64,000 nt of DNA from an uncultured Thermoleophilia bacterium (lineage in GTDB: Bacteria > Actinomycetota > Thermoleophilia > Solirubrobacterales > 70-9): contig CAVWEV010000005.1 in NCBI GenBank assembly GCA_963754225.1, positions 282,282 through 346,281 of the forward strand. The letters run 5' to 3'. Positions within the stretch are counted from its first letter, which is position 1; each line of letters starts with the position of its first letter. The notes under the pieces were generated by a model. The model saw only the letters and a program-made list of their open reading frames with translations, was not told the DNA's origin and ran no database searches. Made by a program: the position numbers and the translations under genes. Shown here in pieces: positions 15,042 through 44,374 of the stretch.

Positions 15042-15066
15042 GTACCCGCGAGGGCGAGGGTGAAAC
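15042..15066 (-). promoter_or_regulatory. SigB/SigF-type promoter candidate P1 upstream of 14058..15008
   Basis: Minus strand reads GTTTCA-N13-GGGTAC. The -10 element lies 33 nt upstream of the ATG. Confidence 0.55.
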
Positions 15067-15098
15067 AATTTGCCGCGGATAATCCGCTTGTCGGCCGG

Positions 15099-15123
15099 GT
15101 ACCCGCGGCCGGCGGGGCTAAAC
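15099..15123 (-). promoter_or_regulatory. SigB/SigF-type promoter candidate P2 (tandem to P1)
   Basis: Minus strand reads GTTTAG-N13-GGGTAC. The element GGCCGGGTACCCGCG is duplicated 57 bp from P1. Confidence 0.5.
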
Positions 15124-15164
15124 GAAGCGGCGGAGCGGCGCTTCCTCTCCCGTCGCGCGGCTCC

Positions 15165-15500
15165 TCATCTTGCGGAACGGCGACGCTCCCAGATCGCGGT
15201 GAGGATGCGGGGTGGAAGCAGGGTCACGACCGATCTCCCAACAGCCTCCCAGCTGCTGTCGCTGTCACCTGTCGTGGCCTTCTTCAACAGGGACACGAGC
15301 CGGCGACGGTCCGTGCTGCTCAGGTTCCAGGGCCGACCGCGCCCTTTTCGAACGATGCGTGCGAAGTCCTGGCGCTCCCTCTCGCTGAGCGTCTCGTTCA
15401 CGCGGTCGCGCGCGTTGATCCACAGAGACCTTGCGACCTCCCACACAACCGCCCATGGGACGGCTCGACCGCGGGCCCAAACGCTTTTGATTGAAGGCAT
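15165..15500 (-). CDS. hypothetical protein
   Basis: Track ORF 15165..15575. ATG at 15500 is preceded by GAGGTGG. Sequence MPSIKSVWARGRAVPWAVVWEVARSLWINARDRVNETLSERERQDFARIV.. Confidence 0.4.
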   Translation of the reverse strand: MPSIKSVWARGRAVPWAVVWEVARSLWINARDRVNETLSERERQDFARIVRKGRGRPWNLSSTDRRRLVSLLKKATTGDSDSSWEAVGRSVVTLLPPRILTAIWERRRSAR

Positions 15501-15602
15501 CCAACCCCACCTCGGACTCTCGGACTCAGACTCGCCTGATTCGGCGGATACCCGTGGCCAGACGCTGAAAACCACGCGCCGAGGCGTTCACCGAGCGGGG
15601 CC

Positions 15603-15627
15603 GTTTACAGCATCTGCTCCCGGGTAA
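15603..15627 (+). promoter_or_regulatory. SigB/SigF-type promoter candidate upstream of the SRPBCC gene
   Basis: GTTTAC-N13-GGGTAA, then AAGGAGG RBS and GTG at 15666. Confidence 0.55.
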
Positions 15628-15665
15628 GGGATTAGTTCACCGATATCCAAGGAGGAAAAGAAAAG

Positions 15666-16920
15666 GTGGCCAAGGACATGACAGACATAGGCCAGACGAT
15701 CGGAAGTGCGTTCGGCACGATCGTGCGAGATGCCGCCCAGAGCGTTTCGAGCAACGGGCATAAGGGTCTCTCTGGCAGAGGTACCAACGGAGCGCTTTCG
15801 GGAATTCGGGGGGTAGCCGCTGGCGCCGGGCTTGCCGCCGCGGCCCCGCTCGCCGCGAAGGGAGCCAGCAAGCTCGTCAAGGGCGCCGGCAAGCGCGTCG
15901 CGTCTCCCGCCAAGGACGCGACCGAGAAGGTCGGCGAGAAGGCGAAGGAAGCGGTCGGCGAGAAGGTCGACGACGCAGGCGGCCCGGCGGGCGTCGCCAA
16001 GGAAGCCGGCAAGAGCCTCATACCAGGCGTGGGCGGTAAGGGCGAAGACCAGAAGGGCGGAGGCCAGAAGGGCACCCCCGGCGTCGGCAAGGGTCGGCGG
16101 ATGCCCGTGCAGCAGGCCGTCGACGTGGCCGTGCCGCTACAGACCGCGTACAACCAGTGGACCCAGTTCGAGGAATGGCCTCAGTTCATGCACCGCCTCG
16201 ACCAGGCGACGCAGGAGGACGACGAGAACGTCTCCTTCCGGACGAAGGTCTGGGGCATGTCGAGGGAGTTCGAGGCGCAGATCGTGCAGCAGCGCCCCGA
16301 CGAGCGGATCATGTGGAACGTCAGCCAGGGCGTCCAGCACACGGGGGTCGTCACCTTCCACGAGCTGGCCGACCGCCTGACGCGGATCCAGGTGAGCATC
16401 GACGTGGAGCCGGGCTCGCTGCTCGAGAAGGCGGCGCGCGGGATGCGCCACGTGAAGCGCGCCGTGCGGGCCGATCTGGCCCGGTTCAAGGCGTTCATCG
16501 AGATGCAGGAGGTCGAGACCGGCGCCTGGCGCGGGGTGATCGAGGACGGCGAAGTCGTCCAGGACCATCCCTCGAGCTACGACAAGGGTCGGGATTACGC
16601 CGATTTCGAGGACATCCACGACCGCGAGCACTCGCACACGCCACAGAACGGCTCCGGGAACGGAAGCTCGGCCTCGGGGCGTTCGACGGGATCCAGCCGC
16701 AAGAGCGGCGGTTCGTCGAGCTCCCGTTCGCGAGGCTCCAGCCGGAAGCGCGGCGGCGCCTCGGCGAAGGGCCGTTCGACACGGTCGAGCAAGGGCCGTT
16801 CGACAGGGTCAAGCAGCAAGCGCGGCGGATCGGCTTCCGGGCGGCTCGTCCTCGGGTGGACGCTCCAGGTCCCGCAGCCGTTCCGGCTCCAGCCGAAAGA
16901 CGGCCTCGACGAGGTCGTAG
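15666..16920 (+). CDS. SRPBCC (cyclase/dehydrase-like) domain protein with Gly/Lys-rich N-terminus and Ser/Arg/Gly/Lys-rich tail; one frame change near 16830
   Basis: Core VDVAVPLQTAYNQWTQFEEWPQFMHRLDQATQEDDENVSFRTKVWGMSREFEAQIVQQRPDERIMWNVSQGVQHTGVVTFHELADRLTRIQVSIDVEP is typical of actinobacterial SRPBCC proteins. Tail ..GRSTGSSRKSGGSSSSRSRGSSRKRGG.. continues in the +1 frame to a TAG at 16918-16920. Confidence 0.7.
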
Positions 16921-16945
16921 GGTTGGATGACAGAGGTCAAGGACG

Positions 16946-17089
16946 ATGAGCGATTTCCTGAAGCGCGTCGCGGCTGACCGGATCGGCGGGGACCGGCCTT
17001 CGGCACCCCGCGCGCTGGGGGCCGCCGCTGTCGTAGGAGCGACAGCGGCGGCCCTGACCTATCGGTTGCTCAGGAAGCAGGCGGAGTGA
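16946..17089 (+). CDS. small membrane protein (47 aa), hypothetical
   Basis: Below the track cutoff. My translation is MSDFLKRVAADRIGGDRPSAPRALGAAAVVGATAAALTYRLLRKQAE*. The stop is 1 nt before the next ATG. Confidence 0.35.
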   Translation: MSDFLKRVAADRIGGDRPSAPRALGAAAVVGATAAALTYRLLRKQAE

Positions 17090-17090
17090 A

Positions 17091-17372
17091 ATGTTTGGCA
17101 AGAAGGTAAAAACACCGTCGATCGACGTCGAACGGGTGGTCATGGCCGCGGTCGAGGCTGCGTTCGGTGAGAACGGCTCCGATCGCGATAGCGCGGCGAC
17201 CCGATCCGACTCCGATGCGGGCCACAACCACCGGTTCGGAGCGGTGGCGGCTGTGGCAACCGGTGTTGTGGTCGCGACGGCCGCCCGCGCCGCCTACATG
17301 CGGGTGCGCAACGTGGACCTGGAGCAGGTGGCCGAGGCAGTCGAGCACAAGCTTCAGGACCGCAGCGGCTGA
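17091..17372 (+). CDS. small membrane protein, hypothetical
   Basis: Track ORF 17091..17372. TM segment FGAVAAVATGVVVATAARAAY. Confidence 0.4.
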   Translation: MFGKKVKTPSIDVERVVMAAVEAAFGENGSDRDSAATRSDSDAGHNHRFGAVAAVATGVVVATAARAAYMRVRNVDLEQVAEAVEHKLQDRSG

Positions 17373-17705
17373 CCGCCGCCTCCCGAGTCGCTACTCGCCC
17401 GCCGACCGCTCCCACGCCGACATCCACCTCGTCGGGCGCTCGTTCCCGACGGGGCCGACGCTCGGGTGTCGCGTGGTCAGGCCAGATGGCAGCTGGTACG
17501 TCGGCGTCGTGCGGGACAACATGTTCGCGGTGGAGGCAGCAGCGCTCGATGAGGTGCAGGTCTGGCCACGTCCGCAGTCTCAGCCGACCACTTGGCGCTG
17601 ACGAGGACTGGAGCAAACGGGCGCGACACCGGCACCGCCTTTACCTCTCCGCGCCGGGGCCGCGCCTCGTGTGATCTCCCGCCCGGCGGGTAGCAGAGCC
17701 ATCAC

Positions 17706-18695
17706 ATGACGGGACTCCTGCTAGCGGCGGCGTTCGTGCTGATCATCGGCGGAGCAATCCTGTTCACGAACGCGATCGAGTGGTCGGGCAAGCGTCTCGA
17801 CCTCGGCGAAGGAGCCGTGGGAAGCCTGCTGGCCGCAGTCGGCACGGCGCTGCCGGAGTCGCTGATTCCCGTGGTCGCGGTCCTCTCGGGTGGCGAGTCC
17901 GAACAGGTCGCGATCGGCGCCATCGTCGGCGCCCCCTTCATGCTGGGCACGCTCGCCATGCTGGTGGTCGGCGCCAGCGCGCTGGCGTTTCGCCGGCGGC
18001 GAAGCAGCGGCTCGGTGGTGACCGCCGACAACCGCTCGCTGCGTCGCGACCTCGGCCTCTTTCTGCCCTGCTTCGCCATCGGCATCGGCCTGGGGCTGAT
18101 CGACTCGAAATCCATCCACATCGCCGGGGCGGTCGGATTGCTGATCGCCTACGGAGCTTATGCGCGGCGGACGGTCCGGCACAGCGGCGAGAGCGAGGAC
18201 GTGGACGAGCTCAAGCCGCTCACGTTCGACCCCAGCAAGGAGGACCCGCCTCGCAACATCGCGATCGTCGCCCAGCTCGTTGTCGGGCTGCTGATGATTG
18301 TCGGCGGCGCCGAGCTCTTCGTGGAGGAGGTCGTGACCGTGGCCGAGGCGCTCGGCATCTCCGCGCTGGTCCTCTCCCTCGTGCTCGCGCCGCTGGCGAC
18401 CGAGCTTCCGGAGAAGCTCAACAGCGTGCTCTGGATGCGCCGCGACAAGGACACCCTGGCGGTCGGCAATATCACTGGGGCGATGGCGTTTCAGTCCACC
18501 GTGCCGATCGCCCTCGGCCTCGCGGTGACCGACTGGGACCTCGACCGGTACGCAGTCGCCGCCGGGGTCGCCGGCCTGGCCGGCGGCGCGCTGGCGCTGT
18601 GGCGGCTTCGCGAGGACAGGCTGGGGATACCAGCGGTGGCCGCCTGGAGCGTCCTGTTCGCCGGCTTTGTCGCCTTCGCCGCGCTGGGCTCCTGA
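17706..18695 (+). CDS. CaCA-family sodium/calcium (cation/H+) exchanger membrane protein
   Basis: Two alpha-repeat signatures: GTALPESLIPVVAV and LATELPEKLNSVLW. About 10 predicted TM segments. Intact 329-aa ORF. Confidence 0.8.
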   Translation: MTGLLLAAAFVLIIGGAILFTNAIEWSGKRLDLGEGAVGSLLAAVGTALPESLIPVVAVLSGGESEQVAIGAIVGAPFMLGTLAMLVVGASALAFRRRRSSGSVVTADNRSLRRDLGLFLPCFAIGIGLGLIDSKSIHIAGAVGLLIAYGAYARRTVRHSGESEDVDELKPLTFDPSKEDPPRNIAIVAQLVVGLLMIVGGAELFVEEVVTVAEALGISALVLSLVLAPLATELPEKLNSVLWMRRDKDTLAVGNITGAMAFQSTVPIALGLAVTDWDLDRYAVAAGVAGLAGGALALWRLREDRLGIPAVAAWSVLFAGFVAFAALGS

Positions 18696-19026: not shown

Positions 19027-20423
19027 CTAGCCGAGGACGCGCGCGTCGATCGGATCTCCGAGCGCTATCCCTTCCGAAGTAATGTCGAATTCGCGGATCT
19101 CGGGGTCGTGGGCGCTCCCGCGCGACTTGAGGACCGTCACCGTGCGCAGGAGGCGTGACTCGGCTCGCACGTACTGCACCAGGACGACGTTGTCGGAGAG
19201 GTGGGAGATCCCGTACTCGGCGAGGCGGCCAAGTTCGAAGAGGTCCGGCACCTCGCTGGTCATGATCGAACTTATCCCCGCGCGCGAGAGGCGTTGCGTG
19301 AGCGAGTAAATGAACTCGCGGAAGCGGACCGGATCGGTCGCCGCGTAGTGCAGGTCGCTCAGGCTATCGATCAGCACGCGCGTCGCGCCGGTGGCCTCCA
19401 CAAGGTCGAGCAGCTCGTACACCCATTCGTCGATGTAGACATCGTTGGGAGACCTGTACATGACGGCCACCCGCTCGTCGTCCAGCGACCAGCCGAACCC
19501 TGCGGCGACACGCTGCAGCTGGATAGGGTTCTCCTGCAGGCGTCGCGATCACGCCCTGCTCGCCGCTCGCGGCGCCGTTGAAGATGAAATGGAGTCCCAT
19601 CAACGTCTTGCCCGCACCCGACGGGCCGGCGACGAGAGTGGAGCTACCCTGCCTGTAGCCCTCGGCGAGCATATTGTCGAGCGGCGGGATGCCGGAGGAG
19701 ATTCGGTCTTCGCCGAGCCGATACCCCTCCTGTCTGACGGGGTCGGCGAGCCGGGGAAAGACAGTGATGCCGTCGCTGGAGAGGCGATATCCGTGACGTC
19801 CTGAGAGGTACTCGCCCCCGCGCAGCTTGGTCACCTGAATCAGGCGTAGTGTGCGCTCGTTCGCACGCTCCGTCCCGAGGGCGATGATCCCGTCGGCCAC
19901 GGCGGCCTCCGGCGCCGCGCGCGTCTCTTCGCTCGCTGTACTCGCCTATCCAGAACGAGGTCACGGGGAAGGCCGTGAGCAGCGCGGCGAGGTCGTGCAG
20001 GAAGCGCCGGAAGGCCTGCGCGTCCTGCGCGAACGCGGCCAGCGCCTTGAAGCTGTCGATCGCGATGATCCCCGGCCGCCGCTCCCTGATCAGCACGCCG
20101 ATCCGCTCGGTCACGGCGGTGAGCCCGTCCTCGCCGACCAATGCGCCCCCGAGGTCCTCGTAATAGATCGAGCGGCCGATCGCATGGCGATCGAAGAAGC
20201 TCAGCGTCTGGCCGTAGCGGAGCATCTTCTCGAACGGCTCGGAGACCGTGGAGAAGTAGATCGCAGGGCGCTCCTCGGTCGCGCCCGCGAAGACGAACTG
20301 CTGGGACAGCATGGTTTTTCCCGAGCCGGGCAGCCCGATGATCAGGTTGATCCCGTTCACCGGCAGGCCGCCGCCGAGGATCATGTCGAGCCCCTCGTCG
20401 CCGCTCGTCAGGCGCTCGTCCAC
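19027..20423 (-). CDS. KaiC-like double-domain RecA-superfamily ATPase; two frame changes
   Basis: Domain 1 LIIGLPGSGKTMLSQQF (Walker A) in track ORF 19644..20423. Domain 2 LVAGPSGAGKTLMGLHF in 19364..19900. C-terminus ..VLKSRGSAHDPEIREFDITSEGI.. in 19027..19470. Confidence 0.75.
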
Positions 20424-21097
20424 TAGCGCCTCTCCTCTGCGCCGCGACCGACCAGCGCGCTGGTCCCGAGCAGGTCCTTGACGGTTGAGACGAGCTCGAG
20501 CGGGTCAAATGGCTTCTGCAGAAAGGCATCAGCGCCCGCAGCGAGCGCCTCATCTCTGGCCTCGAGGACGGAGATGGCGAGCACCGGCCCGGCATCGTGG
20601 TCCTTCAATTGCCTGCAGAGCTCCGCTCCGAGACCTCCGGAGATCATCAGCTCCACGATCGCGAGCTGCGGCCGGCTCTCGAGCCAGTGCTCCTCGGCTT
20701 CCCCGACTGCAAGGGCCAGGTTCACTTCGTATCCCTCGGTGCGCAGGAAGAACTGCTCTAGTTCCGCCGCGACAGGATCGCGCTCCGCCAGCAGCACTAG
20801 CACCCGCGTACGACCGCTTGAGCTGGCGTTCACCGGCGGCTGGCCGCCCTGGCTCTGCTCCGATAGCAGTCGGTGGGCGTCGGCGGCCGAGAGCCCGCGC
20901 GCAACCTCCGCCGCGATGAAGCGAAGCTGCTCTACCTGATCGCGGGAGTACAGGCGGTGTCCTCCAGGGCTCCGCTGAGGGACGATCGTCGCGTAGCGCT
21001 CCTCCCAGTTGCGGATCGTCGCGGGCGCAATCCCCAGCATTCGAGCTACTGCCCCAATGCTGTAGACGCCATGGCCAGCGCCAGCTTCGTCAGACAC
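20423..21097 (-). CDS. MerR-family HTH fused to a CheY-like receiver domain (Glu at the phospho-acceptor position)
   Basis: YSIGAVARMLGIAPATIRNWEERY..GHRLYSRDQVEQLRFI (MerR HTH), then RVLVLLAERDP..PQLAIVELMISG..PVLAISV..DAFLQKPFDP (receiver beta1/3/4/5 pattern). The stop overlaps the KaiC-like GTG by 1 nt. Confidence 0.75.
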   Translation of the reverse strand: MSDEAGAGHGVYSIGAVARMLGIAPATIRNWEERYATIVPQRSPGGHRLYSRDQVEQLRFIAAEVARGLSAADAHRLLSEQSQGGQPPVNASSSGRTRVLVLLAERDPVAAELEQFFLRTEGYEVNLALAVGEAEEHWLESRPQLAIVELMISGGLGAELCRQLKDHDAGPVLAISVLEARDEALAAGADAFLQKPFDPLELVSTVKDLLGTSALVGRGAEERR

Positions 21098-21229
21098 CGC
21101 AGTGATGCTATCCGATCGGCCGGATTGGGGAGCTTATGAGTAAGTTCCGACGAGGATTTCCCCCGAGCGATCACGCCCGATTCTCCTCATAACCTCGTCA
21201 GAATCTGCTAGAGTCGGTGCGGTGTTGGA

Positions 21230-22099
21230 GTGGCTTCGAGCCGTCACGCCTCATACAAGCACGGAGTTCGACGCGTGAACCCCGGGACAGTTGTGCGGCC
21301 TAGTGCCCTCACCAACGGTAGGACTCCGCCGTATTCACTGCAGAGGCGGCGCGAGGAGCAGCGACTGCTCGAGGAGTACGCCGACACCCGCGATCCGGCC
21401 GTCCTCGAGGAGCTGGTCGAGCGCTTCCTGCCCCTCGCGAGGCGGCTCGCGTCGCGTTTCCGCGGTGGGACCGAGCCGTTCGAGGACCTCGTGCAGGTCG
21501 CGAGCGTGGGTCTGCTGAACGCGATCACTCGCTTCGACCCGAGTCTTGGATTTGCGTTCACGTCGTTCGCGACGCCGACCATTGTCGGCGAGCTCAAGCG
21601 ACACTTCCGGGATCGCAGCTGGTCGGTATGTGTCGACCGAGGGGCCAAGGACCGCGCTGTCGTGGTCGAGCGGGCGATCGAGCAGCTCACCCAGAGGGAG
21701 GGCCACTCCCCGTCGGTCGCCGAGATCGCGAACTGGACGGAGTTGTCAGCGGAGAAGGTCATCGAGGCGATCGAAGTCGGCCAGGCCCACCGGCCGCACT
21801 CGCTCGACAAACCGGTGGATTCCGATGCCGACGCCGCCGCACTCCTCGACTGCCTGGGCGAATACGACACGTTCTACGACGTCGTCGAGTACGCCGAGGC
21901 AATCGCGCCCGCGCTCGACGAGTTCTCGCCGCGTGACCGACTGGTCCTTCATCTCCGCTTCGTCGAGGACATGACCCAGACCGAGATCGCGGAGCGAATC
22001 GGCGTCTCCCAGATGCAGGTCTCCCGGATCCTCCGGTCCTTGCTTGAGCGGCTTCGCGACCAGGTGCAGGGTTGTGCCGAGGCTCGGACTGCCGGATGA
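21230..22099 (+). CDS. SigB/SigF/SigG-subfamily RNA polymerase sigma factor
   Basis: FEDLVQVASVGLLNAITRFDP..FTSFATPTIVGELKRHFRDRSW (region 2) and LRFVEDMTQTEIAERIGVSQMQVSRILRSLLERL (region 4). The exact start is uncertain; a GTG near 21275 is possible. Confidence 0.8.
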   Translation: MASSRHASYKHGVRRVNPGTVVRPSALTNGRTPPYSLQRRREEQRLLEEYADTRDPAVLEELVERFLPLARRLASRFRGGTEPFEDLVQVASVGLLNAITRFDPSLGFAFTSFATPTIVGELKRHFRDRSWSVCVDRGAKDRAVVVERAIEQLTQREGHSPSVAEIANWTELSAEKVIEAIEVGQAHRPHSLDKPVDSDADAAALLDCLGEYDTFYDVVEYAEAIAPALDEFSPRDRLVLHLRFVEDMTQTEIAERIGVSQMQVSRILRSLLERLRDQVQGCAEARTAG

Positions 22100-23494: not shown

Positions 23495-23773
23495 ATGTGC
23501 TTAGCGATTCCAGGCCAGATACTCGAGATCGTCGATGACGAGAATCGACTCGCGCAGGTGGACGTAGCGGGGGTGCGCCGAAACGTCAACGTCGGCCTCC
23601 TCGACGGCGAGGCCGGTGGGATCGAACCGGGCGACTGGGTGCTGATCCACGTCGGTTTCGCGATCTCGAAGGTGGACGAGGAGGAGGCTCGCGCTACCCG
23701 CGAGCTGCTCGAGGGTATGGGCGCAGACTACGAGCAGGAGCTCGAGGAGCTGAAGGCGAGCGTGATCGAGTGA
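23495..23773 (+). CDS. hypC: hydrogenase maturation chaperone HypC
   Basis: MCLAIPGQILEIV..AQVDVAGVRRNVNVGLL..GDWVLIHVGFAI. Canonical N-terminal Cys and OB-fold pattern. Confidence 0.9.
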   Translation: MCLAIPGQILEIVDDENRLAQVDVAGVRRNVNVGLLDGEAGGIEPGDWVLIHVGFAISKVDEEEARATRELLEGMGADYEQELEELKASVIE

Positions 23774-24003
23774 GCGAGCCGTTCCAGGAGTGCCACGACG
23801 ACCACTGCATCACGTGCGGGGACGTCGCCGAGTCGATGCGCGTCCTCGATGTCGACTCCGCGCGGGCCCTCGCGCTTTGCGAGCTGGACCCAGGAGAGCG
23901 GCAGACCGTCGAGATCGCCCTCGTCGGCCCGGTCGAGGTCGGGGACCGGCTGCTGGTCCACGCCGGGACGGCGATCGCCAGGGCGGAGGAGAGCATCGCG
24001 TGA
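23770..24003 (+). CDS. HypC/HupF-like OB-fold protein with internal CxxC (second copy)
   Basis: ..CHDDHCITCGDVAESMRVLDVD..GERQTVEIALVGPVEVGDRLLVHAGTAIA resembles HypC but has an N-terminal extension in place of Met-Cys. Start and stop both overlap the neighbours by 4 nt. Confidence 0.6.
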   Translation: MSEPFQECHDDHCITCGDVAESMRVLDVDSARALALCELDPGERQTVEIALVGPVEVGDRLLVHAGTAIARAEESIA

Positions 24004-25121
24004 GGTTCGTCGACGAGTTTCGCGACGCCGAGCTCGGCCGGGTGCTCGCCGGCGAGATCGCCGCGGCCGCGGAGCCGGGGCGTCACTACAAGCTGATGGA
24101 GGTATGCGGCGGTCACACACACTCGATCTACAAGTACGGCGTAGACGACCTGCTGCCTGACAACGTCGAGCTGGTGCACGGGCCCGGGTGCCCGGTGTGC
24201 GTGATCCCGATGGGTCGAGTCGACGATGGGATCGCGATCGCCCACGAGGAGAACGTCATCTTCACGTGCTTCGGCGACATGATGCGGGTGCCGGGCTCGG
24301 AGGGGACCCTGCTCGACGCCAAGGCCGAGGGCGCGGACGTGCGGATGGTCTACTCGCCGCTCGACGCGCTTCGAATCGCGAAGTCCAATCCAGAGCGCAA
24401 GGTCGTCTTCTTCGCGATCGGGTTCGAGACCACCGCGCCGTCGACGGCCCTGACCCTCAAGCGGGCGAAGGCCGAGGAAGTCGAGAACTTCCTCTGCATG
24501 TGCAACCACGTGACGATCGTTCCGCCGTTGCGGGCCCTTCTCGACTCGCCCGATCTGCGCCTCGACGGATTCATCGGGCCGGGCCATGTCTCGACGATCG
24601 TCGGCGCGCGTCCGTTCGAGTTCATACCCGCCGACTACGGGAGGCCGCTCGTCACCGCCGGGTTTGAGCCGCTCGACATCCTCCAGGCGATCCTGATGAT
24701 CCTCCGCCAGCTCGCGGACGGCCGCTGCGAAGTCGAGAACCAGTACAAGCGCGTCGTCCCGTACGAGGGAAACCTCCCGGCTCTGGCGGCGATGGCGGAG
24801 GTGTTCGAGCTGCGCCCGCACTTCGAGTGGCGCGGCCTCGGCTTCATCTCGCAGAGCGCGCTGCGGCTCGCGGACTCCTACGCGGACCTCGACGCCGAGC
24901 GCCACTACGAGGTGCCCGGGGTGCGGGTCGCAGATCCAAAGGCGTGTCAGTGCGGAGAGGTGCTGAAGGGCGTGATCAAGCCCTGGGAGTGCAAGGTGTT
25001 CGGAACCGCGTGCACGCCCGAGCACGCGATCGGGACGTGCATGGTCTCCCCGGAGGGCGCGTGCGCCGCCTACTACAACTACGGACGCTACGCTCGCAGG
25101 CGCGAGGCGGTCGCGTCGTGA
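24000..25121 (+). CDS. hypD: hydrogenase maturation protein HypD
   Basis: MEVCGGHTH, GPGCPVCV, FETTAP, GPGHVS and C-terminal CxxxxxxC..CTPEHAIGTCMVSPEGAC. GTG start overlaps the upstream stop. Confidence 0.92.
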   Translation: MRFVDEFRDAELGRVLAGEIAAAAEPGRHYKLMEVCGGHTHSIYKYGVDDLLPDNVELVHGPGCPVCVIPMGRVDDGIAIAHEENVIFTCFGDMMRVPGSEGTLLDAKAEGADVRMVYSPLDALRIAKSNPERKVVFFAIGFETTAPSTALTLKRAKAEEVENFLCMCNHVTIVPPLRALLDSPDLRLDGFIGPGHVSTIVGARPFEFIPADYGRPLVTAGFEPLDILQAILMILRQLADGRCEVENQYKRVVPYEGNLPALAAMAEVFELRPHFEWRGLGFISQSALRLADSYADLDAERHYEVPGVRVADPKACQCGEVLKGVIKPWECKVFGTACTPEHAIGTCMVSPEGACAAYYNYGRYARRREAVAS

Positions 25122-26239
25122 GCGAGCGCGCCCTCAGCGAGCGGGCGAAGGGGCGCGCCTCGGGTGAGGATCGCGAGCAGCGCATCCTGGAGATCATCGA
25201 GACCGCGCGCTCGAAGCGCCCGCGGTTCAAGGACACGCAGATCACGATGTCCCACGGCGCGGGGGGGAAGGCCACCCAGACGATGATCGAGGGGCTGTTC
25301 GTCCCCGCGTTCGAGTCGGAGCCGCTGGCCGAGCTCGGCGACGCCGGCGGGGTCGAGGTCGACGGCGTCAAGCTGGCGATGACCACCGACACGTTCGTCG
25401 TCAAGCCGATCCGGTTCCCGGGCGGCTCGATCGGCGAGCTTGCGGTCAACGGGACGGTGAACGATCTCGCGGCCGCGGGCGCCCGAGCGAGCGCGCTGAG
25501 CGTGGCGATCGTGCTCGAGGAGGGACTCGAAGCGGACGTGCTGCGCGGCGAGGTCGAGGCGATCGCGGAGGCGGCCGGCGGCGCCGGAGTCGAGGTCATC
25601 ACCGGCGACACCAAGGTCGTCGACCGCGGACACGCCGACGAGATGTACATCTGCACGTCTGGGCTCGGCAGGGTCGATGAGCGGGCGTCGCTCTCGACCG
25701 GCTCGCTGGCCGCCGGCGATCGCGTGCTGGTCTCGAAGCCGGTGGGCGAGCACGGCACGGCGATCATGCTCGCGCGGGGCGAGCTCGGCCTCGATGCCGA
25801 TGTCGTCTCCGACACGCGCTCGCTGTGGCCGGTCGCGGACGCCCTGCTCGACTCGGCCGGGGCCGAGCTGCGGTGCATGCGCGACGCGACCCGCGGTGGC
25901 GTCGCGACGGTCCTGAACGAGCTTGCCCGCGCGTCCGGCGTCGGAATGAGTGTTCGCGAAGCGGACGTCCCCGCAGCGCCCGAGGTCGTCGGCGCCGCGG
26001 AGCTGCTCGGGATCGACCCGATGTACGTGGCTAACGAGGGCGTGATGGTCGCCTTCGTCGGGCCGCAGGCCGCCGACGCCGCGGTCGAGGCGCTGCGCTC
26101 CGTGCCCGGATGTGAGGCGGCAGTGGAGATCGGCGAGGTCCGGGACGAGCCTCCGGGGATGGTCCTGGTCGAGACGGCGTTCGGGGGCCAGCGGGTGATG
26201 GACCTGCTCGCCGGAGACCCGCTACCGAGGATCTGCTGA
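25118..26239 (+). CDS. hypE: hydrogenase maturation protein HypE
   Basis: MSHGAGGKAT.., AVNGTVNDLAAAGA, TGDTKVV and the diagnostic C-terminal PRIC*. Confidence 0.92.
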   Translation: MSERALSERAKGRASGEDREQRILEIIETARSKRPRFKDTQITMSHGAGGKATQTMIEGLFVPAFESEPLAELGDAGGVEVDGVKLAMTTDTFVVKPIRFPGGSIGELAVNGTVNDLAAAGARASALSVAIVLEEGLEADVLRGEVEAIAEAAGGAGVEVITGDTKVVDRGHADEMYICTSGLGRVDERASLSTGSLAAGDRVLVSKPVGEHGTAIMLARGELGLDADVVSDTRSLWPVADALLDSAGAELRCMRDATRGGVATVLNELARASGVGMSVREADVPAAPEVVGAAELLGIDPMYVANEGVMVAFVGPQAADAAVEALRSVPGCEAAVEIGEVRDEPPGMVLVETAFGGQRVMDLLAGDPLPRIC

Positions 26240-26291
26240 GCAGGGGAGTGAGCTTGAAACAGATGCAGCCGCGAGCGAGGAGAGGAAGGCG

Positions 26292-27362: not shown

Positions 27363-27424
27363 GGTGACATCGGCGACAAGAGCGAAGAGCCCCGAGTTTC
27401 ACTGACCCAAGAGGAGAGAAGCAG

Positions 27425-31483: not shown

Positions 31484-31486
31484 GAG

Positions 31487-32650: not shown

Positions 32651-33167
32651 TGCACAGCGGGAGAAGCAGATCCTGATCGCGGGGATCGGCAACGCGTGGA
32701 TGCGCGACGACGGCTTCGGCGGTCGGGTGGCCGAGAGCCTCTCCGCGGGCGATCTGCCGGCCGGGGTGAGCGTGTTCGACTTCGGCACCGGCGGGCTCGA
32801 CCTCGCGTACGAGGTCATGCGCGGCTACGACGCCCTGGTGCTGGTGGACGTCAGCCGCCAGGGTGGCGAGCCCGGGACGCTGTACGTGATCGAGCCCGAT
32901 CCGGAGGACATCGAGCCGATCGAGGACGGCCACGCCGTCAACCCGCACGGTATGGACCCGAGGACCGTGCTTCGGTTCGTGAAAACGGTGGGAGGGTGGC
33001 CTGGCAAGGTCGTCGTCGTCGCGTGCGAGCCCGCCGGAGGCGACGACGAGATGGGGCTCGAGCTCTCACCCGAGGTCGGCGCGGCCGTCGAGCGGGCGAC
33101 GAGGCTCGTCCTCGACACCGTGGATGAGCTGAGATCGGACGCCGCGTACGCGGAGGCGGAGTCCTAA
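32643..33167 (+). CDS. hydrogenase maturation endopeptidase (HupD/HyaD/HybD family)
   Basis: ILIAGIGNAWMRDDGFGGRV..DFGTGGLDLAYEV..DALVLVDV..NPHGMDP. Typical Asp/His metal-site pattern. Confidence 0.85.
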   Translation: MGDAQREKQILIAGIGNAWMRDDGFGGRVAESLSAGDLPAGVSVFDFGTGGLDLAYEVMRGYDALVLVDVSRQGGEPGTLYVIEPDPEDIEPIEDGHAVNPHGMDPRTVLRFVKTVGGWPGKVVVVACEPAGGDDEMGLELSPEVGAAVERATRLVLDTVDELRSDAAYAEAES

Positions 33168-33169
33168 TC

Positions 33170-33577
33170 GTGCACGAGCTTTCGATCTCGAGCGCGATCG
33201 TGAACACCGCCGAGCGCCACGCGGCCGGCCGAAAGGTGACCGCCGTCGACGTCAGGGTTGGCAGCCTGCGACAGGTCGTCCCAGGGTCGCTGGTCTTCTA
33301 CTTCGAGATCGTGGCCCGGGACACGGTCTGCGCCGACGCCCGGCTGAAGCTCGAGTCCGTGGCCGCGCTGCTGCGGTGCCCCGATTGCGGACGCGAGTGG
33401 GACCCGGCGCCGCCGCCGCTCGCGACCCACGAGCCGCTCGCGGGGTCGGGCCTGCCGCCGGTGCCGGCGTTTCGTTGCCTGGACTGCGTCTCCCCGGGCG
33501 AGGTCATCGCGGGAGACGAGCTCGAGGTCGAGTCAATCGAGGTCCAAGGCTCAGCGGCGGCGGCCGCGGCCGGCTGA
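33170..33577 (+). CDS. hypA: hydrogenase nickel incorporation protein HypA
   Basis: MHELSISSAIVNT.. N-terminal MHE motif and the zinc site CPDCG..CLDC. Confidence 0.88.
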   Translation: MHELSISSAIVNTAERHAAGRKVTAVDVRVGSLRQVVPGSLVFYFEIVARDTVCADARLKLESVAALLRCPDCGREWDPAPPPLATHEPLAGSGLPPVPAFRCLDCVSPGEVIAGDELEVESIEVQGSAAAAAAG

Positions 33578-33591
33578 GAAAGGAGGGGACG

Positions 33592-34272
33592 ATGCATCGC
33601 ACCAAGATCACGGTCGCCGAGGACGCCCTTGACGCGAACGAGACGATCGCCCGAACGAACCGCAATGACTTCGACCGCGCCGAGGTCGCGGTCGTGAACC
33701 TGATGAGCTCGCCCGGGGCGGGCAAGACGACGTTGCTCGAGCGCAGCCTCGGCGACCTCGGCGGCGTTCGGGCGGGGGTGCTCGAAGGAGACGTCCAGGG
33801 GAGCATCGACTCCGACCGCATCGCCTCCCTGCATGTGCCGGTCACGCAGCTCAACACCGGCGCAGGGTTCGGCGGCGAGTGCCATCTCGACGCGAACATG
33901 GTCCGCTCCGCGCTTCCCTCGCTCCCCCTCGCCGACCTCGACCTGCTGGTGATCGAGAACGTTGGCAACCTCGTGTGCCCGGCCGAGTTCAAGGTCGGGG
34001 AGGACGCGCGGGTGATGATCGCGTCGGTCACCGAGGGGGAGGACAAGCCGCTCAAGTACCCGCTCATGTTCCGCGCCTGCGAGCTGATCGTCATCAACAA
34101 GATCGACCTCTTGCCCCACATCGAGTTCGACCTCGAACGCCTCCGGGAGAACCTCGACATCGTCCATCCGGGGGTCGAGCGGATCGAGCTCAGCGCTCGC
34201 ACCGGCGAGGGGGTTGAGGCCTGGCGGAGCTGGCTCTCCGCGGTCCCGGAGCGCCGGCGGGCGATCGCCTGA
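33592..34272 (+). CDS. hypB: hydrogenase nickel incorporation GTPase HypB
   Basis: MSSPGAGKTTLL (P-loop), ENVGNLVCPA, VINKIDLL. RBS AAGGAGGGG before ATG at 33592. Confidence 0.9.
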   Translation: MHRTKITVAEDALDANETIARTNRNDFDRAEVAVVNLMSSPGAGKTTLLERSLGDLGGVRAGVLEGDVQGSIDSDRIASLHVPVTQLNTGAGFGGECHLDANMVRSALPSLPLADLDLLVIENVGNLVCPAEFKVGEDARVMIASVTEGEDKPLKYPLMFRACELIVINKIDLLPHIEFDLERLRENLDIVHPGVERIELSARTGEGVEAWRSWLSAVPERRRAIA

Positions 34273-34280
34273 GGCCATCC

Positions 34281-35486
34281 ATGCCCGGGACCGCGGCAGA
34301 GACGCTCCACTCGCGGCTCGACGCGTTCCGAGCGGTTCGCACCGAGGCGAATCGAGACTTCTTCGCGGCCGAGGCCGAGCGGCTCGCTCGCTGCTGCCAC
34401 TCCATGGCCGAGCGCTTCGCTCGCGGGGGGCGACTCGTCGCGCTCGGGCGCTCGCCGGTGGCGCGCTCGGATGCGCGTCATGTCGCGGTCGAGTTCGTCC
34501 ATCCGGTCATCGTGGGCAAGCGCGCGCTTCCGGCGCTCGCGCTCGCGGGTGAGGGTGGACCGCTGGAGAGACAGGTCCGCGCGGTGGTCGAATCCGGGGA
34601 CATCGCGATCGGCTACGGGATCGAGGACCCGGACGAGCTCGAGACGCGGGACGCGCTGGCGGTGGCGAGGGAGCTCGGGTGCCTGACGATCGCTTTCGGC
34701 CCCGGCCCCGCGGAGTGGGTGTTCGAGCCCGAGGCTCCGGACTCGTTCGTCAGGCAGGAGCTCGTCGAGACCCTCTACCACGTGCTGTGGGAGCTCGTCC
34801 ATGTCTTCTTCGAGCACCGCGGCCTGCTCGAGGGACGCGAGATCGGCCCGGTCCACGACACCGGCGCATCGAGCTTTCTCTATCCCTTCCTCTCGGAGTC
34901 TGAGGCGGACCTCGAGGGCGTGATCGAGGACGTTCGGGCCTCGATCCTGATGAAGGCGCAGGAGGTGGGTTCGCTGCGGGAGCAGACCCTGGCGGAGGGC
35001 GGCGAGGCGCTGCTTGCCGCCGCCGACGAGCTGCGCCGCGCCCGGGATGCCGGGGCCCGTGTGCTGGCGATGGGCAACGGCGGCTCGGCGACCGACGCGA
35101 TGGACTTCGTCGCCGACCTTCGGGCCGCGGGGCTGCGTTCGATCGACCTCACCGAGGACGCGTCGATCCTGACCGCGATCGCGAACGACGTCGGCGTCGA
35201 GGAGATCTTCCAGCGACAGGTGATCGCGTACGGGCGCGCGGGGGACATCGCCGTGGCGCTGTCGACGAGCGGAAACTCGGCGAACCTGATCGAGGCGCTG
35301 ACCGAGGCTCGCCGCCAGCGGCTCACGACGCTCGCGTTCGTCGGCTACGACGGGGGGCGGATCGCCTCCGAGCGGCTGACGGACCACGTGGTCGTGACGC
35401 GGTCTCAGCACATCCCCCGCATCCAGGAGGCACAGGCGAGCGGCTACCACGCCCTGGTCGAGCTGATCCGCGCACCCGAGGAGTGA
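34281..35486 (+). CDS. tandem SIS-domain protein (GmhA/phosphoheptose-isomerase-like), hydrogenase-associated
   Basis: Second half: RVLAMGNGGSATDAMDFVADL..VALSTSGNSANLIEAL..FVGYDGG. First half is a more diverged SIS-like repeat. Confidence 0.7.
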   Translation: MPGTAAETLHSRLDAFRAVRTEANRDFFAAEAERLARCCHSMAERFARGGRLVALGRSPVARSDARHVAVEFVHPVIVGKRALPALALAGEGGPLERQVRAVVESGDIAIGYGIEDPDELETRDALAVARELGCLTIAFGPGPAEWVFEPEAPDSFVRQELVETLYHVLWELVHVFFEHRGLLEGREIGPVHDTGASSFLYPFLSESEADLEGVIEDVRASILMKAQEVGSLREQTLAEGGEALLAAADELRRARDAGARVLAMGNGGSATDAMDFVADLRAAGLRSIDLTEDASILTAIANDVGVEEIFQRQVIAYGRAGDIAVALSTSGNSANLIEALTEARRQRLTTLAFVGYDGGRIASERLTDHVVVTRSQHIPRIQEAQASGYHALVELIRAPEE

Positions 35487-35489
35487 CCC

Positions 35490-37834
35490 GTGGCGTTGTC
35501 GGCGAGAACAACCGAGAGGCGTCGGGTGAGGGCCCGGGTTGCCGGGGTCGTTCAGGGAGTTGGATTTCGACCCTACGTCTTCCGTCTCGCCGAGGAGCTG
35601 GGGCTCGGTGGGTGGGTGCTGAACGACGAGCGCGGAGTGGAGGTCGAAGTCGAGGGTGAGCCGGCCTCGGTCGACGAGTTCCTGGCAAGGCTCCCCGCCG
35701 AAGCGCCACCGCTCGCGAGCGTCGAGTCGGTCCGCGTCGACCCCGCGCGGGCGAGCGGGGAGTGCACATTCCGGATCGTCGAGTCGGAGCGCGGCGCCGA
35801 GCCCGAGGCGCTGGTCTCGGCCGACTTCGCCACCTGCCCCGACTGCCTGACCGAGCTGTTCGATCGCGGCCAACAGGCGTCACCGATATCCGTTCATCAA
35901 CTGCACGAACTGCGGCCCGCGGTTCACGATCGTGCGCGGCGTCCCGTACGACCGACCGTTGACGACGATGGCCGGGTTCGAGATGTGCGACAGCTGCCGG
36001 GCCGAGTACGAGGACCCCCGCGACCGCCGCTTCCACGCCCAGCCGAATGCGTGCCCTGAGTGCGGTCCCCGCGTTCGCCTCCTCGACCCGGCCGGAGCCG
36101 AGCTGGCCCGAGGGCTGTATCGCGATGCGGTCGCCGCCGCCGCCGCGATGCTCGCCGCCGGGAAGGTGGTCGCCGTGAAAGGGCTCGGGGGTTACCACCT
36201 CGCGTGCCGGGCCGACGACGAGGCCGCGGTTCGCGAGCTCCGCTCGCGCAAGCACCGCGAGGACAAGCCGTTCGCGCTCATGTGCGGGAACCTCGCCGAA
36301 GCGCGGGAGCTGGTCGAGCTGACCGCCCACGAGGAGGAGCTCCTCGCGGGGCCGGAGCGACCGATCGTGATCGCGCGACGTCGTCCCCGGGCGGAGGTCG
36401 CCTCCGCGGTCGCGCCCTACTCGCCCGACCTCGGGGTGATGCTTGCCTACTCACCGCTCCATCACCTGCTTCTCGCCGACGCCGCGAGGACGCTCGTGAT
36501 GACCTCCGGCAACGTCTCGGACGAGCCGATCGCGTACCGCGATGACGACGCGCTCGAACGGCTGGGGGAGATCGCCGACGCCTTCCTCGTCAGCGACCGC
36601 CCGATCCACATCCGAACCGACGACTCGGTGCTCCGCTCACTGGACCCCTCGGTCCGCTCCGAGCCGGTGTTGATGCGGCGCTCCCGGGGCTTCGTGCCGG
36701 CCAGCATCGAGCTGCCGCTCGAGGCGCCGCCGCTGCTCGCGTCAGGCGCCGAGCTGAAGAGCACCTTCTGCGTCGCCAAGGGACGTCGCGCCTGGGTCAG
36801 CCACCACATCGGCGACCTGAAGAACTGGGAGACGCTGCACTCGTTCCGCGAGGGAGTGGAGCACTTCGAGCGCGTGTTCGCCGTCGAGCCGCGCCTAGTC
36901 GCTCACGACCTGCACCCGGACTACCTGTCGACGCGCGAGGCGCTCGAGCGAGTTGGCGACCGGCTCGTCGGCGTCCAGCACCACCACGCCCACCTCGCAG
37001 CATGCCTCGCGGAGCACGGTGAGCTTGGGCCGGCGATCGGCGCGATCTATGACGGCAGCGGCTACGGGACCGACGGAACCGTGTGGGGCGGCGAGCTGCT
37101 CGCGGGCGACCTTGCGAGGTTCGATCGCGTGGGGCTGCTGTTCCCGGCCCGCTTGCCCGGCGGCGACGCTGCGGTTGGCGAGCCGTGGAGGATGGCGTGC
37201 GCGTGGCTAGCGCTCTCGCACGACGAGGAGCTGCCCGCGATCCCGTCACCTCTCCGCACGGCGGTCGAACCCCGCCGCTGGGAGGCGGTCTGCGAGCTCG
37301 TTCGCACCGGGGTCGGCTCGCCGCTCACGACCAGCGTGGGGCGGCTGTTCGATGCGGCGGCGGCCTTGTGCGGCCTCCGCGCCAAGGTCAACTACGAGGG
37401 CCAGGCGGCGGTCGAGCTCGAAGGCGCGACGCGACCCGCGCGAGCGGGGCGCCTACCCGATGCCGCTGCTCCCCGCCGACCGCGTCGGTCAGGGCGTGGG
37501 CCGAGGGGCGATGACTGTTCTCGACGCTCGCGAGACTGTTCGCGCCCTCGTCGCTGACCTCGAGCGGGGCGCCTCGCCGGCCACCGTCGGAGGTCGCCTG
37601 CACAACGGTCTCGCGAATGCCACCGCGGAGGCATGCGCGCGCGAGGCCGAGCGGCGCGGCACCTCGACCGTAGTGCTCTCGGGCGGGGTGTTCCAGAACC
37701 GGTTGTTGGTCGAGCGCACGCTCGCGCGGCTGCAGGAGCACGGCCTGAGGGTCCTGCTGCCTACGCGCCTGCCTCCCAACGACGGCGGCATCTCCTACGG
37801 CCAGGCGGCGGTAGCGGCCGCGACCCACCCGTAA
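35490..37834 (+). CDS. hypF: carbamoyltransferase HypF; two frame changes
   Basis: Acylphosphatase domain VAGVVQGVGFRPYV. Zinc fingers CPDC..(frame change near 35870)..NCTNCGPRFTI..CDSC..CPECGP. YrdC-like KGLGGYHLAC. C-terminus SGGVFQNRLL..NDGGISYGQA after a frame change near 37430 (track ORFs 35490..36059, 35932..37557, 37352..37834). Confidence 0.85.
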
Positions 37835-42708: not shown

Positions 42709-42754
42709 CCCAGCCGTTTGACCGGGCGTTGGGCCTCTCGCGATTCCCTCGCCC

Positions 42755-42817: not shown

Positions 42818-42863
42818 TATTTGCGGCTTTTTCCGGTTCGGTGGAGAAGCTGAAACCGCCCGA

Positions 42864-42883
42864 TGCAACCCCGATTGCAACCC
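42864..42883 (+). repeat. TGCAACCCC-GAT-TGCAACCC direct doublet
   Basis: About 50 nt downstream of decayed copy 5, the same arrangement as at copy 4. Confidence 0.8.
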
Positions 42884-43049
42884 GGAGGCATCAGCGCACC
42901 CACGGCTGGCGGGCGAGAACTACCTGCCGATCAGACGGGCTGTTCCAGGATTCGACGCAGGACACGCGGGCAGGGGCCTTCCCGTCGTTCGCCCGTTGGA
43001 CATCGGTAGGCAGCGCTGGCTTACTCGCTGCGGAAGCGCCTGACTTCCG

Positions 43050-43526
43050 CTACGTGCGGGACCGGCCGGGATGCCGGACCAGAGGGATGGCGGCCCAAAG
43101 CGAGCCAAGAAGGAGCGTTGCGACGAGGCCGGCGATCACCGCCAGGGTCGCGCTGAATGCAAAGTCGGCGATCAGAATCACGGCGCCGATCATGGCGAGC
43201 GCGAGAAAGGCCAGCCCGCCAATTGAGAGCTTATTGGACGCTATGAGAATGCTCTCCTTGTTCTTCTGGCGGAAGTGGATCCGGTGCCACGCTGACGGGG
43301 CGATCAGCAGGGCCGTGGAGATCGCGGTCGCGGCGAGCGTCGCAAAGAAAAGATCGCGCTGAAAGGTGGTTGTCTTGACGAAGCCCTGGCTGAACGGGAC
43401 CGTGAGCAGGAACGCGAACAGAACCTGCACTCCGGGTAGCGCGACTCGCAACTCCTGAAGCAGCTCTCCGAGTTCGCGGTTGACCCGCTCGCCCTGATCC
43501 TCAGGCTGGCCGCCCTTCTCGCTCAT
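43050..43526 (-). CDS. membrane protein (I believe DUF6328-like)
   Basis: NRELGELLQELRVALPGVQVLFAFLLTVPFSQGF.. plus three further TM segments. Intact 158 aa. Confidence 0.55.
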   Translation of the reverse strand: MSEKGGQPEDQGERVNRELGELLQELRVALPGVQVLFAFLLTVPFSQGFVKTTTFQRDLFFATLAATAISTALLIAPSAWHRIHFRQKNKESILIASNKLSIGGLAFLALAMIGAVILIADFAFSATLAVIAGLVATLLLGSLWAAIPLVRHPGRSRT

Positions 43527-43678
43527 CTAGAGCCCATTCTCAGGGACGGAACGATCTCCTCCTCGATGCCGGTGTCCGCCCTGACGACTCAAATCTCCAT
43601 CCGGTCGTGGGTCCCCGGTCACTTGCCGCATGTGCCACCCGCTGCTGTCTCAGCGCACACTGCTCGCCGGTCAAGCAT

Positions 43679-43703
43679 GTTTCGCGCCGGGCCGATCGGG
43701 TAA
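43679..43703 (+). promoter_or_regulatory. SigB/SigF-type promoter candidate (near-leaderless) for 43715..43954
   Basis: GTTTCG-N13-GGGTAA. The -10 ends 11 nt before the ATG at 43715. Confidence 0.55.
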
Positions 43704-43714
43704 TCGAAGGCGCA

Positions 43715-43954
43715 ATGCTGATTGGAGCGATCATCGCGTTCTGCGTGCTGGTTTTCATCGTCGCGTTGCTTGCGCCGCGGCTCTCCCAATACCTGCAGCG
43801 CGGCGGGGATAAGCCGCTCGCGGCGGGCCAGCGCGCTGGGAGTAAAGCTCCCGGCGCACTCGGCAGGTGGGCGCAGAAGCCGTTCGGCAAGTCGCGCCAG
43901 GCCGTGTCGAAGAGCGGCTCGGAGGGTCGGCGCACGCGCCGGAAGCTCTTCTAA
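43715..43954 (+). CDS. small membrane protein with basic tail, hypothetical
   Basis: MLIGAIIAFCVLVFIVALLAPRLSQYLQRGGDKPLAAGQRAGSKAPGALGRWAQKPFGKSRQ.. within track ORF 43607..43954. Confidence 0.5.
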   Translation: MLIGAIIAFCVLVFIVALLAPRLSQYLQRGGDKPLAAGQRAGSKAPGALGRWAQKPFGKSRQAVSKSGSEGRRTRRKLF

Positions 43955-43973
43955 CTCTGAGAGGGGGAGGCGG

Positions 43974-44339
43974 CTAGTCGAGCTCTCGCTCGCGCTGTGC
44001 GGCTTCCTCGTCGTGACGAGCGGCCGCGCGGCCCTCGCGCTTGAGCCGCTCCTCGGCCTCAGCGGCCCGCTGCTCCTCGGATTTCGCCGCCTCGGCGTGC
44101 TCCTCGGCGGCGGCGGCGTGTGTGCCCGCTCTCTCGCGACGGGCGCTCGCCTCGTGGCTCAGTTCTTGGGCCTTGGTGGCGTGCGCGTCCGCCTCTTGCC
44201 GATGCCCCGCGGCCTCGGAGCTGAGTCGCTCACGCTCCCGCCGCTTCTCTTCGGCGCGCCGCTGTGTCCAGCGCCACGCAACGAACGCGACCACCGCGAT
44301 CGCGACCACGATGATCAGGATTAGAAGCCCGGTCGACAT
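43974..44339 (-). CDS. membrane-anchored charged coiled-coil protein, hypothetical
   Basis: MSTGLLILIIVVAIAVVAFVAWRW, then a Glu/Arg/Ala-rich helix (..EEKRRERERLSSEAAGHRQEADAHATKAQEL..). Confidence 0.5.
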   Translation of the reverse strand: MSTGLLILIIVVAIAVVAFVAWRWTQRRAEEKRRERERLSSEAAGHRQEADAHATKAQELSHEASARRERAGTHAAAAEEHAEAAKSEEQRAAEAEERLKREGRAAARHDEEAAQRERELD

Positions 44340-44348
44340 GCTGTTCTA

Positions 44349-44374
44349 GTACCCGCTCGCCACACGGCTTAACC
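44349..44374 (-). promoter_or_regulatory. SigB/SigF-type promoter candidate (leaderless) for 43974..44339
   Basis: Minus strand reads GGTTAA-N14-GGGTAC. The -10 ends 9 nt before the ATG. Confidence 0.5.

Follow-up and report, generated by a model that had tools for sequence, protein, structure and literature searches.

Does the promoter code of the general-stress sigma factors SigB and SigF operate in Thermoleophilia, and which sigma factor would read it there? Thermoleophilia are abundant soil actinobacteria that have almost never been cultured, and to our knowledge nothing is known experimentally about their transcription. The question is raised by a 64-kb stretch of DNA (~70% G+C; hereafter the window) from contig CAVWEV010000005.1 of an uncultured Thermoleophilia bacterium, in which a sequence-only reading had listed five copies of a two-box motif, GTTT followed by GGGTA, and a sigma factor gene that could drive the genes behind them. 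We analyzed the motif in the window and in loci of relatives compared with it (L-numbers such as L015 and L101). The window carries at least seven, and probably nine, SigB/SigF-type promoters: six exact copies, one close variant and two likely variants. As judged from sequence comparison, the probability is roughly 0.85 that RNA polymerase uses these sites as promoters when it carries a SigB/SigF-family sigma factor of group 3.

Sites of the two-box motif

The five motifs listed earlier were all present at their coordinates and on their strands, while the list itself proved two to four sites short, as two exact copies and two likely variants had been overlooked. The sites, with their distances in nucleotides (nt) from the start codon and with the open reading frames (ORFs) that they face, are:

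8460..8484, minus strand: GTTTTT-N13-GGGTAG, exact, overlooked earlier; 49 nt 5' of ATG 8410 (ribosome-binding site GGAAGGAG) of the DUF6929 gene
11353..11377, minus strand: candidate GATTAG-N13-GGGTAA, one -35 mismatch; 39 nt 5' of ATG 11313
15042..15066, minus strand: P1, proximal tandem promoter, GTTTCA-N13-GGGTAC, exact; 33 nt 5' of ATG 15008
15099..15123, minus strand: P2, distal tandem promoter, GTTTAG-N13-GGGTAC, exact; 57 nt 5' of P1
15548..15572, minus strand: GTTTTC-N13-GGGTAT, exact, overlooked earlier; 47 nt 5' of ATG 15500 of an ORF of 111 amino acids (aa)
15603..15627, plus strand: GTTTAC-N13-GGGTAA, exact; 38 nt 5' of GTG 15666 (ribosome-binding site AAGGAGG) of the SRPBCC gene
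17669..17693, plus strand: candidate GTGTGA-N13-GGGTAG, one mismatch; 12 nt before ATG 17706
43679..43703, plus strand: GTTTCG-N13-GGGTAA, exact; 11 nt before ATG 43715 of the DUF6411 gene
44349..44374, minus strand: variant GGTTAA-N14-GGGTAC (alternatively GTTAAG-N13-GGGTAC), 9 nt before ATG 44339, without a Shine-Dalgarno sequence

Every exact copy has a gap of 15 nt between GTTT and GGGTA, is intergenic, is aimed at a gene and lies 9-90 nt from the start codon; a search that allowed gaps of 12-18 nt returned the same six sites, each with 15 nt. The tandem arrangement of P1 and P2, proposed earlier, was confirmed. Both contain a 21-nt direct repeat made up of the -10 box and the next 15 nt, and thus a local duplication appears to have doubled the promoter of the repeat-protein operon. 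The promoter at 15572 and that of the SRPBCC gene stand back to back, with their -35 boxes 30 nt apart. Such divergent back-to-back pairs (GTTT-N15-17-GGGTA, -35 boxes 1-30 nt apart) recur at unrelated loci: L095 5876-5928, L099 8472-8549 and window 15548-15627.

The number of copies far exceeded the background. GTTT-N15-GGGTA occurred six times in the window versus a mean of 0.03 in 100 dinucleotide-preserving shuffles (the whole window holds 82 GTTT and 62 GGGTA on both strands). When spacings of N14-16 were allowed, six exact copies were found versus a mean of 0.075 in shuffles, and with up to one mismatch 18 overlapping matches versus 4.8. The sequence-only reading had named a motif frequency equal to that of shuffled intergenic sequence as the outcome that would speak against it; we therefore shuffled the upstream regions themselves (150 nt upstream of 67 called genes, 10 kb in all, 67.6% GC). 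The sense strand of these regions held six copies; the expectation from 1000 shuffles was 0.018, and none of the shuffles had more than one copy. A sigma-70 consensus scan of 7-23.5 kb gave zero matches, so that the sites there showed no sign of competing housekeeping promoters. An Rfam scan of the whole window found no family at threshold, and a terminator scan stayed at background level.

The window and the related loci together contain 85 exact sites, of which roughly two would be expected by chance if the shuffle rate of the window is extrapolated. Since 53% of random positions already have a good ORF within 200 nt, the distribution of distances alone is informative: 47 of the 85 sites sit 30-59 nt before a good ORF start, compared with ~12% of random positions, and a minor class of eight sits 7-16 nt before one.

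The two-box motif, with a free spacer, is kept upstream of orthologues in dozens of Solirubrobacterales/Thermoleophilaceae genomes. Orthologues of the SRPBCC gene (46-72% identity) were found at 77 loci of a species-representative genome collection, nearly all of them Solirubrobacterales/Thermoleophilaceae metagenome-assembled genomes; this places the window, too, among the Thermoleophilia. For 52 of these loci, which retain the protein N-terminus and at least 160 nt upstream, the footprint was compared with random 150-nt windows from the same loci: GGGTA was present within 150 nt upstream at 46 (versus 4.7% of controls) and GNTT-N14-16-GGGTA at 30 (versus 0.8% of controls). The spacer sequences were unrelated between genomes, and orthologues that failed the strict pattern usually had GATTA, GCTTA or AGTTA as the -35 box.

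Other targets behaved in the same manner. GTTT-N14-16-GGGTA lies upstream of 15 of 30 repeatA orthologues; DUF6411 orthologues from soil metagenomes keep the motif; and DUF6929 orthologues carry it either directly before the gene or, as in L104, before the upstream gene of the operon. The site before the hydrophilic-protein gene (11353..11377) is kept as GATTAC-N14-GGGTAA in L098, and a GATTA-type -35 box, as noted, also precedes SRPBCC orthologues. For the coiled-coil gene the motif is kept in two of three informative orthologues (L015 and L107). Moreover, in the L101 contig (96.6% identical) the boxes of all four sites near 15 kb are intact and the flanks carry substitutions and small insertions or deletions; P1 is exact there except for one spacer substitution, and the 15572 site is exact.

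The motif matches the consensus published for three groups. In mycobacteria, GGGTA is the -10 element at 56 hypoxia-induced mapped start sites (PMC6448022), and a table of the SigF sites of Mycobacterium smegmatis gives the forms GTTT-N15-GGGTA and GTTT-N16-GGGTA (PMC4694148). The SigB consensus of Bacillus subtilis is GTTTAA-N12-14-GGG(A/T)A(A/T), and nine cross-recognizing SigB homologues of Streptomyces read a -10 box with an almost invariant GGG and fifth-position A (GGGNA) and a looser -35 box (GNNT/GTTT) (PMC8346170). Since the motif agrees with mycobacterial SigF as well as Bacillus and Streptomyces SigB promoters, and both boxes but not the spacer are conserved at orthologues, its earlier assignment to the SigB/SigF type is well supported.

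Target genes and predicted leaders

The targets proposed earlier (the repeat-protein operon, the SRPBCC operon, a small membrane protein and a membrane-anchored coiled-coil protein) all have sites upstream that point at them. Together with the genes behind the overlooked sites, the targets and likely or possible targets are:

7425..8410, minus strand: DUF6929/DUF6910 gene, target of the 8484 promoter, with Pfam matches on both of its pieces
10720..11313, minus strand: Ser/Arg/Gly-rich hydrophilic protein with one hydrophobic segment, no Pfam match; likely target of the 11377 site
12354..15008, minus strand: repeat-protein operon (repeatA 14058-15008, repeatB 12634-14058, 104-aa ORF 12354-12668)
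15165..15500, minus strand: 111-aa ORF, function not assigned, coding signature weak
15666..17372, plus strand: SRPBCC (Polyketide_cyc) protein with hydrophilic tails (15666-16949), then a conserved 93-aa ORF (17091-17372)
17706-18695, plus strand: membrane protein of the Na+/Ca2+-exchanger family, possible target of the 17669 candidate
43715..43954, plus strand: DUF6411 small membrane protein, 79 aa (Pfam PF19949, E = 1.2e-20)
43974..44339, minus strand: coiled-coil protein, 121 aa, with an N-terminal membrane anchor

RepeatB is a paralogue of repeatA, with a doubtful C-terminal frame, and neither Pfam nor NCBIfam has a family that matches the repeat proteins. The SRPBCC gene, the small ORF, repeatA, repeatB and the 104-aa ORF follow in that order on a single strand in about 30 relatives, and in the closest of these collinear relatives repeatA lacks a separate promoter. 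The window and L101, on the other hand, have the repeat-protein block in inverted, divergent orientation, and in both the block has acquired a duplicated promoter and the 111-aa ORF. This ORF falls into a cluster of 14 near-identical predicted proteins, and its context is repeated in L101.

Rearrangement is also seen around the DUF6411 gene. In its four closest relatives (L078-L081), DNA similarity to the window starts just upstream of the -35 box, and therefore promoter and gene appear to move as a unit between genomic contexts. The coiled-coil and DUF6411 genes, convergent in the window, run in the same direction in L015. In L080 the coiled-coil gene is absent between the DUF6411 gene and a PhoD-like gene, and tblastn against the DUF6411 metagenome loci gave zero matches to it.

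Two of the -10 boxes had been said to end 11 and 9 nt before the ATG, and these gaps were as claimed for the DUF6411 (ATG 43715) and coiled-coil (ATG 44339) genes, respectively; the exchanger candidate (ATG 17706) has a third short gap, of 12 nt. In the Streptomyces table the distance from the -10 hexamer to the mapped start is 8-11 nt (PMC8346170), which would predict leaders of ~0-2 nt for the coiled-coil gene, ~1-4 nt for DUF6411 and ~2-5 nt for the exchanger. All three predictions fall within the criterion used for mycobacteria, where leaderless mRNAs are common, of a leader of at most 5 nt (PMC6448022). A GAAGG stands 5 nt before the ATG of the DUF6411 gene, at or before the predicted start.

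Short gaps recur in relatives: i) DUF6411 orthologues in L087, L088, L091, L092 and four close relatives have the motif 8-13 nt before the ATG; ii) the coiled-coil orthologues read GCTTAC-N13-GGGTAC + 9 nt + ATG in L015 and GTTT-N16-GGGCA + 11 nt + ATG in L107; iii) the DUF6929 orthologues of L105 and L106 have gaps of 9 nt (in L106, GCTTGA-N13-GGGTAA + 9 nt + ATG); iv) an 81-aa gene in L099 has a gap of 10 nt. A leader that includes a Shine-Dalgarno sequence precedes the DUF6411 orthologues of L082, L083, L086 and L093. On balance, with starts placed by prediction, we lean towards DUF6411 and coiled-coil mRNAs that are leaderless or nearly so. The same geometry occurs before the L053 orthologue (2478-2985) of the DUF6328 gene, as GTTT-N16-GGGTA + 9 nt + ATG; the DUF6328 gene of the window itself (43050-43526) has no convincing motif.

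By analogy, the SRPBCC protein, the two repeat paralogues, the Ser/Arg-rich protein, DUF6929, DUF6411, the coiled-coil protein, the 111-aa ORF and perhaps the cation exchanger would form a general-stress or dormancy-type regulon, and this content together with the density of sites in relatives suggests that it is large. A WS/DGAT (wax-ester/triacylglycerol synthase) gene lies at 48198-49616 with no motif seen before it, and in L104 a WS/DGAT gene adjoins the DUF6929 orthologue; its presence fits a storage-lipid or dormancy theme.

Candidate readers and competing explanations

A possible reader of the motif is encoded in the window itself, next to two divergent genes:

21230..22099, plus strand: SigB/SigF/SigG-family group-3 sigma factor with sigma regions 2, 3 and 4
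19027-20423, minus strand: KaiC-like double-domain ATPase
20423-21040, minus strand: MerR helix-turn-helix/response-regulator receiver protein

The family assignment made earlier holds, with 254.7 bits on TIGR02980 (cutoff 234.35); the protein passes no equivalog model. Its best PDB matches are 8x6g_H (E = 2e-49; a 256-aa group-3 sigma factor in an RNA polymerase holoenzyme entry) and SigF 1l0o_C, and the starts of orthologues indicate that translation probably begins at GTG 21275. That no RsbW/RsbV-like genes are near the sigma gene was borne out, as Pfam found no HATPase_c_2, STAS or SpoIIE domain among the ~60 window ORFs scanned; thus these ORFs hold no partner-switching locus, in which an anti-sigma plus a STAS gene, or a PP2C gene, adjoins the sigma gene. 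No motif (up to one mismatch) was found upstream of the sigma, KaiC/MerR or hydrogenase genes.

The order of the sigma, KaiC-like and MerR-receiver genes is kept in L096 (298-3440; 93% sigma identity) and L100 (163-3330; 78%), likewise with no anti-sigma gene. An inverted repeat, CTTATGAGTAAG, lies at 21133-21144 between the MerR-receiver and sigma genes (its L096 counterpart is CTTATGAATAAG), followed by a -10-like hexamer TAGAGT at 21211-21216; the two may be an operator and the housekeeping promoter of the sigma gene. Downstream of the sigma gene is a PadR gene, and directly 3' of these two begins a complete [NiFe]-hydrogenase cluster (23495-37557, to ~38594) with genes for two HypC, HypD, HypE, the small and large subunits, a NifU-like protein, a maturation protease, HypA, HypB, HypF and a NicO-like nickel transporter.

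Sigma homologues in other contexts share 56-63% identity with the window sigma factor. One in L095 adjoins HATPase_c_2 and STAS genes with motif sites around the module, and those of L097-L099 adjoin a TetR_N-SpoIIE gene and the stress genes BON, YtxH, DUF3618, DUF892 and LigD. Relatives thus hold at least three SigB-like lineages. Those parts of regions 2 and 4 that read DNA hardly vary among them; all therefore probably read the same boxes, and any of them may use the window promoters. The sigma factor encoded at 21230 is accordingly placed as a candidate reader among others.

A strong contender, to which we give slightly less than even odds, is that the promoters are real but mainly read by another SigB-family member, a paralogue whose gene lies outside the window and has RsbW/RsbV-like or PP2C genes as neighbours; the window sigma factor would then be a specialized one, with its own inputs and possibly a smaller target set. 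The partner-switching neighbours of the 56-63% homologues favor this division of labor. So do the sites around the L095 module, which are as auto-regulation predicts and are missing before the window sigma gene, the constant company of KaiC-like and MerR-receiver genes in the clade of the window sigma factor, and the precedent of nine cross-recognizing homologues in Streptomyces (PMC8346170). On the other hand, with regions 2 and 4 almost invariant across the three lineages, the window sigma factor should read the same boxes; four to five of the sites are found at 4-6 kb from its gene; and the other lineages could be orthologues in other genera rather than paralogues of the same genome.

The pairing with KaiC-like and MerR-receiver genes is the most unusual element found and may mean that a stress sigma factor is controlled here by another kind of input. 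A more specific version, in which a SigB-like lineage lost its partner-switching genes and came under a KaiC-type ATPase/phosphorylation module instead of RsbW/RsbV, strikes us as unlikely. If true, a large regulon of dormancy proteins, both hydrophilic and membrane-bound and with perhaps ~200 promoters, would be coupled to energy state or timing.

Much less probable still is that the boxes are no promoters at all but operators of a DNA-binding regulator, such as a dimer on a palindrome, or copies of a small repeat element. The 21-nt repeat of the tandem sites does contain a perfect 10-nt palindrome, CGGGTACCCG. As an operator, however, it was rejected: only the tandem pair has it, the other sites reading GGGTAAGG, GGGTAATC, GGGTAGAC and GGGTATCC, and in P1 of L101 it is broken with GTTT and GGGTA intact. 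No extended repeat family was found either, and the conserved unit behaves as a promoter does: its two short boxes keep a fixed distance, the spacer is free, the orientation is strict and the distance to the start codon varies little. Chance matches in somewhat AT-richer intergenic DNA can practically be dismissed: although only nine bases are specified and the -35 box is degenerate in relatives, none of the 1000 shuffles reached even two copies, one spacing holds at all sites, and the boxes are conserved at orthologous positions in dozens of genomes.

Several observations nevertheless weigh against reading the sites as SigB/SigF-type promoters of a stress regulon: i) The -35 box is loose in relatives (GNTT). 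ii) The four closest DUF6411 relatives (L078-L081) have GGGGAA in place of GGGTAA at -10, a variant that still fits the description of promoters of the Streptomyces SigB homologues. iii) The motif was not found at the coiled-coil orthologue of L108. iv) Some one-mismatch matches are doubtful: that at 7376-7352 would yield only RNA antisense to a DUF59 gene, that at 47132-47156 is noise in a region that probably codes on the opposite strand, and two more (15744-15769 and 41554-41530) are noise within genes, with a damaged -10 box. v) The window sigma gene has no upstream motif, whereas sites surround the L095 homologue (56% identical). vi) The name "stress regulon" is given by analogy. vii) The sequence is of imperfect quality, as frameshifts show. 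One splits the DUF6929 gene near 7700 (intact orthologues have 320-335 aa), the KaiC-like gene (19027-20423) lies in three frames (versus an intact 464-aa gene in a 97% identical contig), and 60728-62782 and the 3' ends of 12634-14058 and 15666-16949 are possibly affected; the frameshifts are either indel errors of the assembly or pseudogenes.

Comparison with known systems

For the SigB/SigF-type promoters that we favor, the behavior of the family suggests the following mechanism. Region 4.2 of the sigma factor would read the -35 box G(T/N)TT and region 2 the -10 box GGGTA, with the gap between GTTT and GGGTA fixed at 15 nt (13 nt between the hexamers) and transcription starting ~8-11 nt after the -10 hexamer. 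Most targets would then have short leaders of ~25-40 nt with a Shine-Dalgarno sequence, and leaderless or nearly leaderless mRNAs would come from the DUF6411 and coiled-coil genes and perhaps from that of the exchanger. The repeat-protein operon would be served by tandem promoters that arose from a 57-nt local duplication, and the SRPBCC gene and the 111-aa ORF by the back-to-back pair. The reader would be the window sigma factor or other SigB-like paralogues encoded beside RsbW/RsbV-like or PP2C genes, and induction by stress would pass through partner switching, as in the family at large.

If so, Thermoleophilia would use, unchanged, the SigB/SigF promoter code known from mycobacteria, Streptomyces and Bacillus. 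A transferable rule (GNTT, 14-16 nt, GGGTA, at ~30-45 or ~10 nt before a start codon) would predict the stress or dormancy regulon from metagenomes, and candidate persistence genes of soil Thermoleophilia would include the conserved SRPBCC and repeat-protein cluster and the DUF6411, DUF6929 and DUF6328-type genes. In our literature search, no report turned up that connects SigB promoters with Thermoleophilia, or sigma factors of this type with KaiC/MerR. Thus the finding is a well-known promoter class in a lineage where it has not been described before; the type of regulation is ordinary, with no new mechanism.

The closest counterparts are the SigF promoters of M. smegmatis and M. tuberculosis, with an identical core, the same phylum, a high-GC genome and many conserved hypothetical targets. 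They differ in that the class here is Thermoleophilia, that the last -10 base is G, C or A here and mostly T there, and that the window sigma gene has no adjacent anti-sigma gene (usfX/rsbW). The SigB system of B. subtilis is also similar: the motif fits its consensus, and the window sigma factor passes the SigB/F/G family model and scores 197 bits on the SigB equivalog model. This score misses the 315-bit equivalog cutoff, however, and unlike in B. subtilis there is no rsbV-rsbW-sigB operon and no auto-regulatory motif before the window sigma gene.

With the leaderless mRNAs of Actinomycetota the short-gap targets share a -10 box that ends 9-12 nt before the ATG and the lack of a Shine-Dalgarno sequence. 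Most described leaderless genes have housekeeping TANNNT promoters, whereas the promoters here are of the stress-sigma type and their starts are predicted. Finally, the situation resembles that of S. coelicolor with its nine SigB homologues: several SigB-like lineages occur in one order, their DNA-reading regions are near-identical, and the promoters combine a loose -35 box with a GGGNA -10 box.

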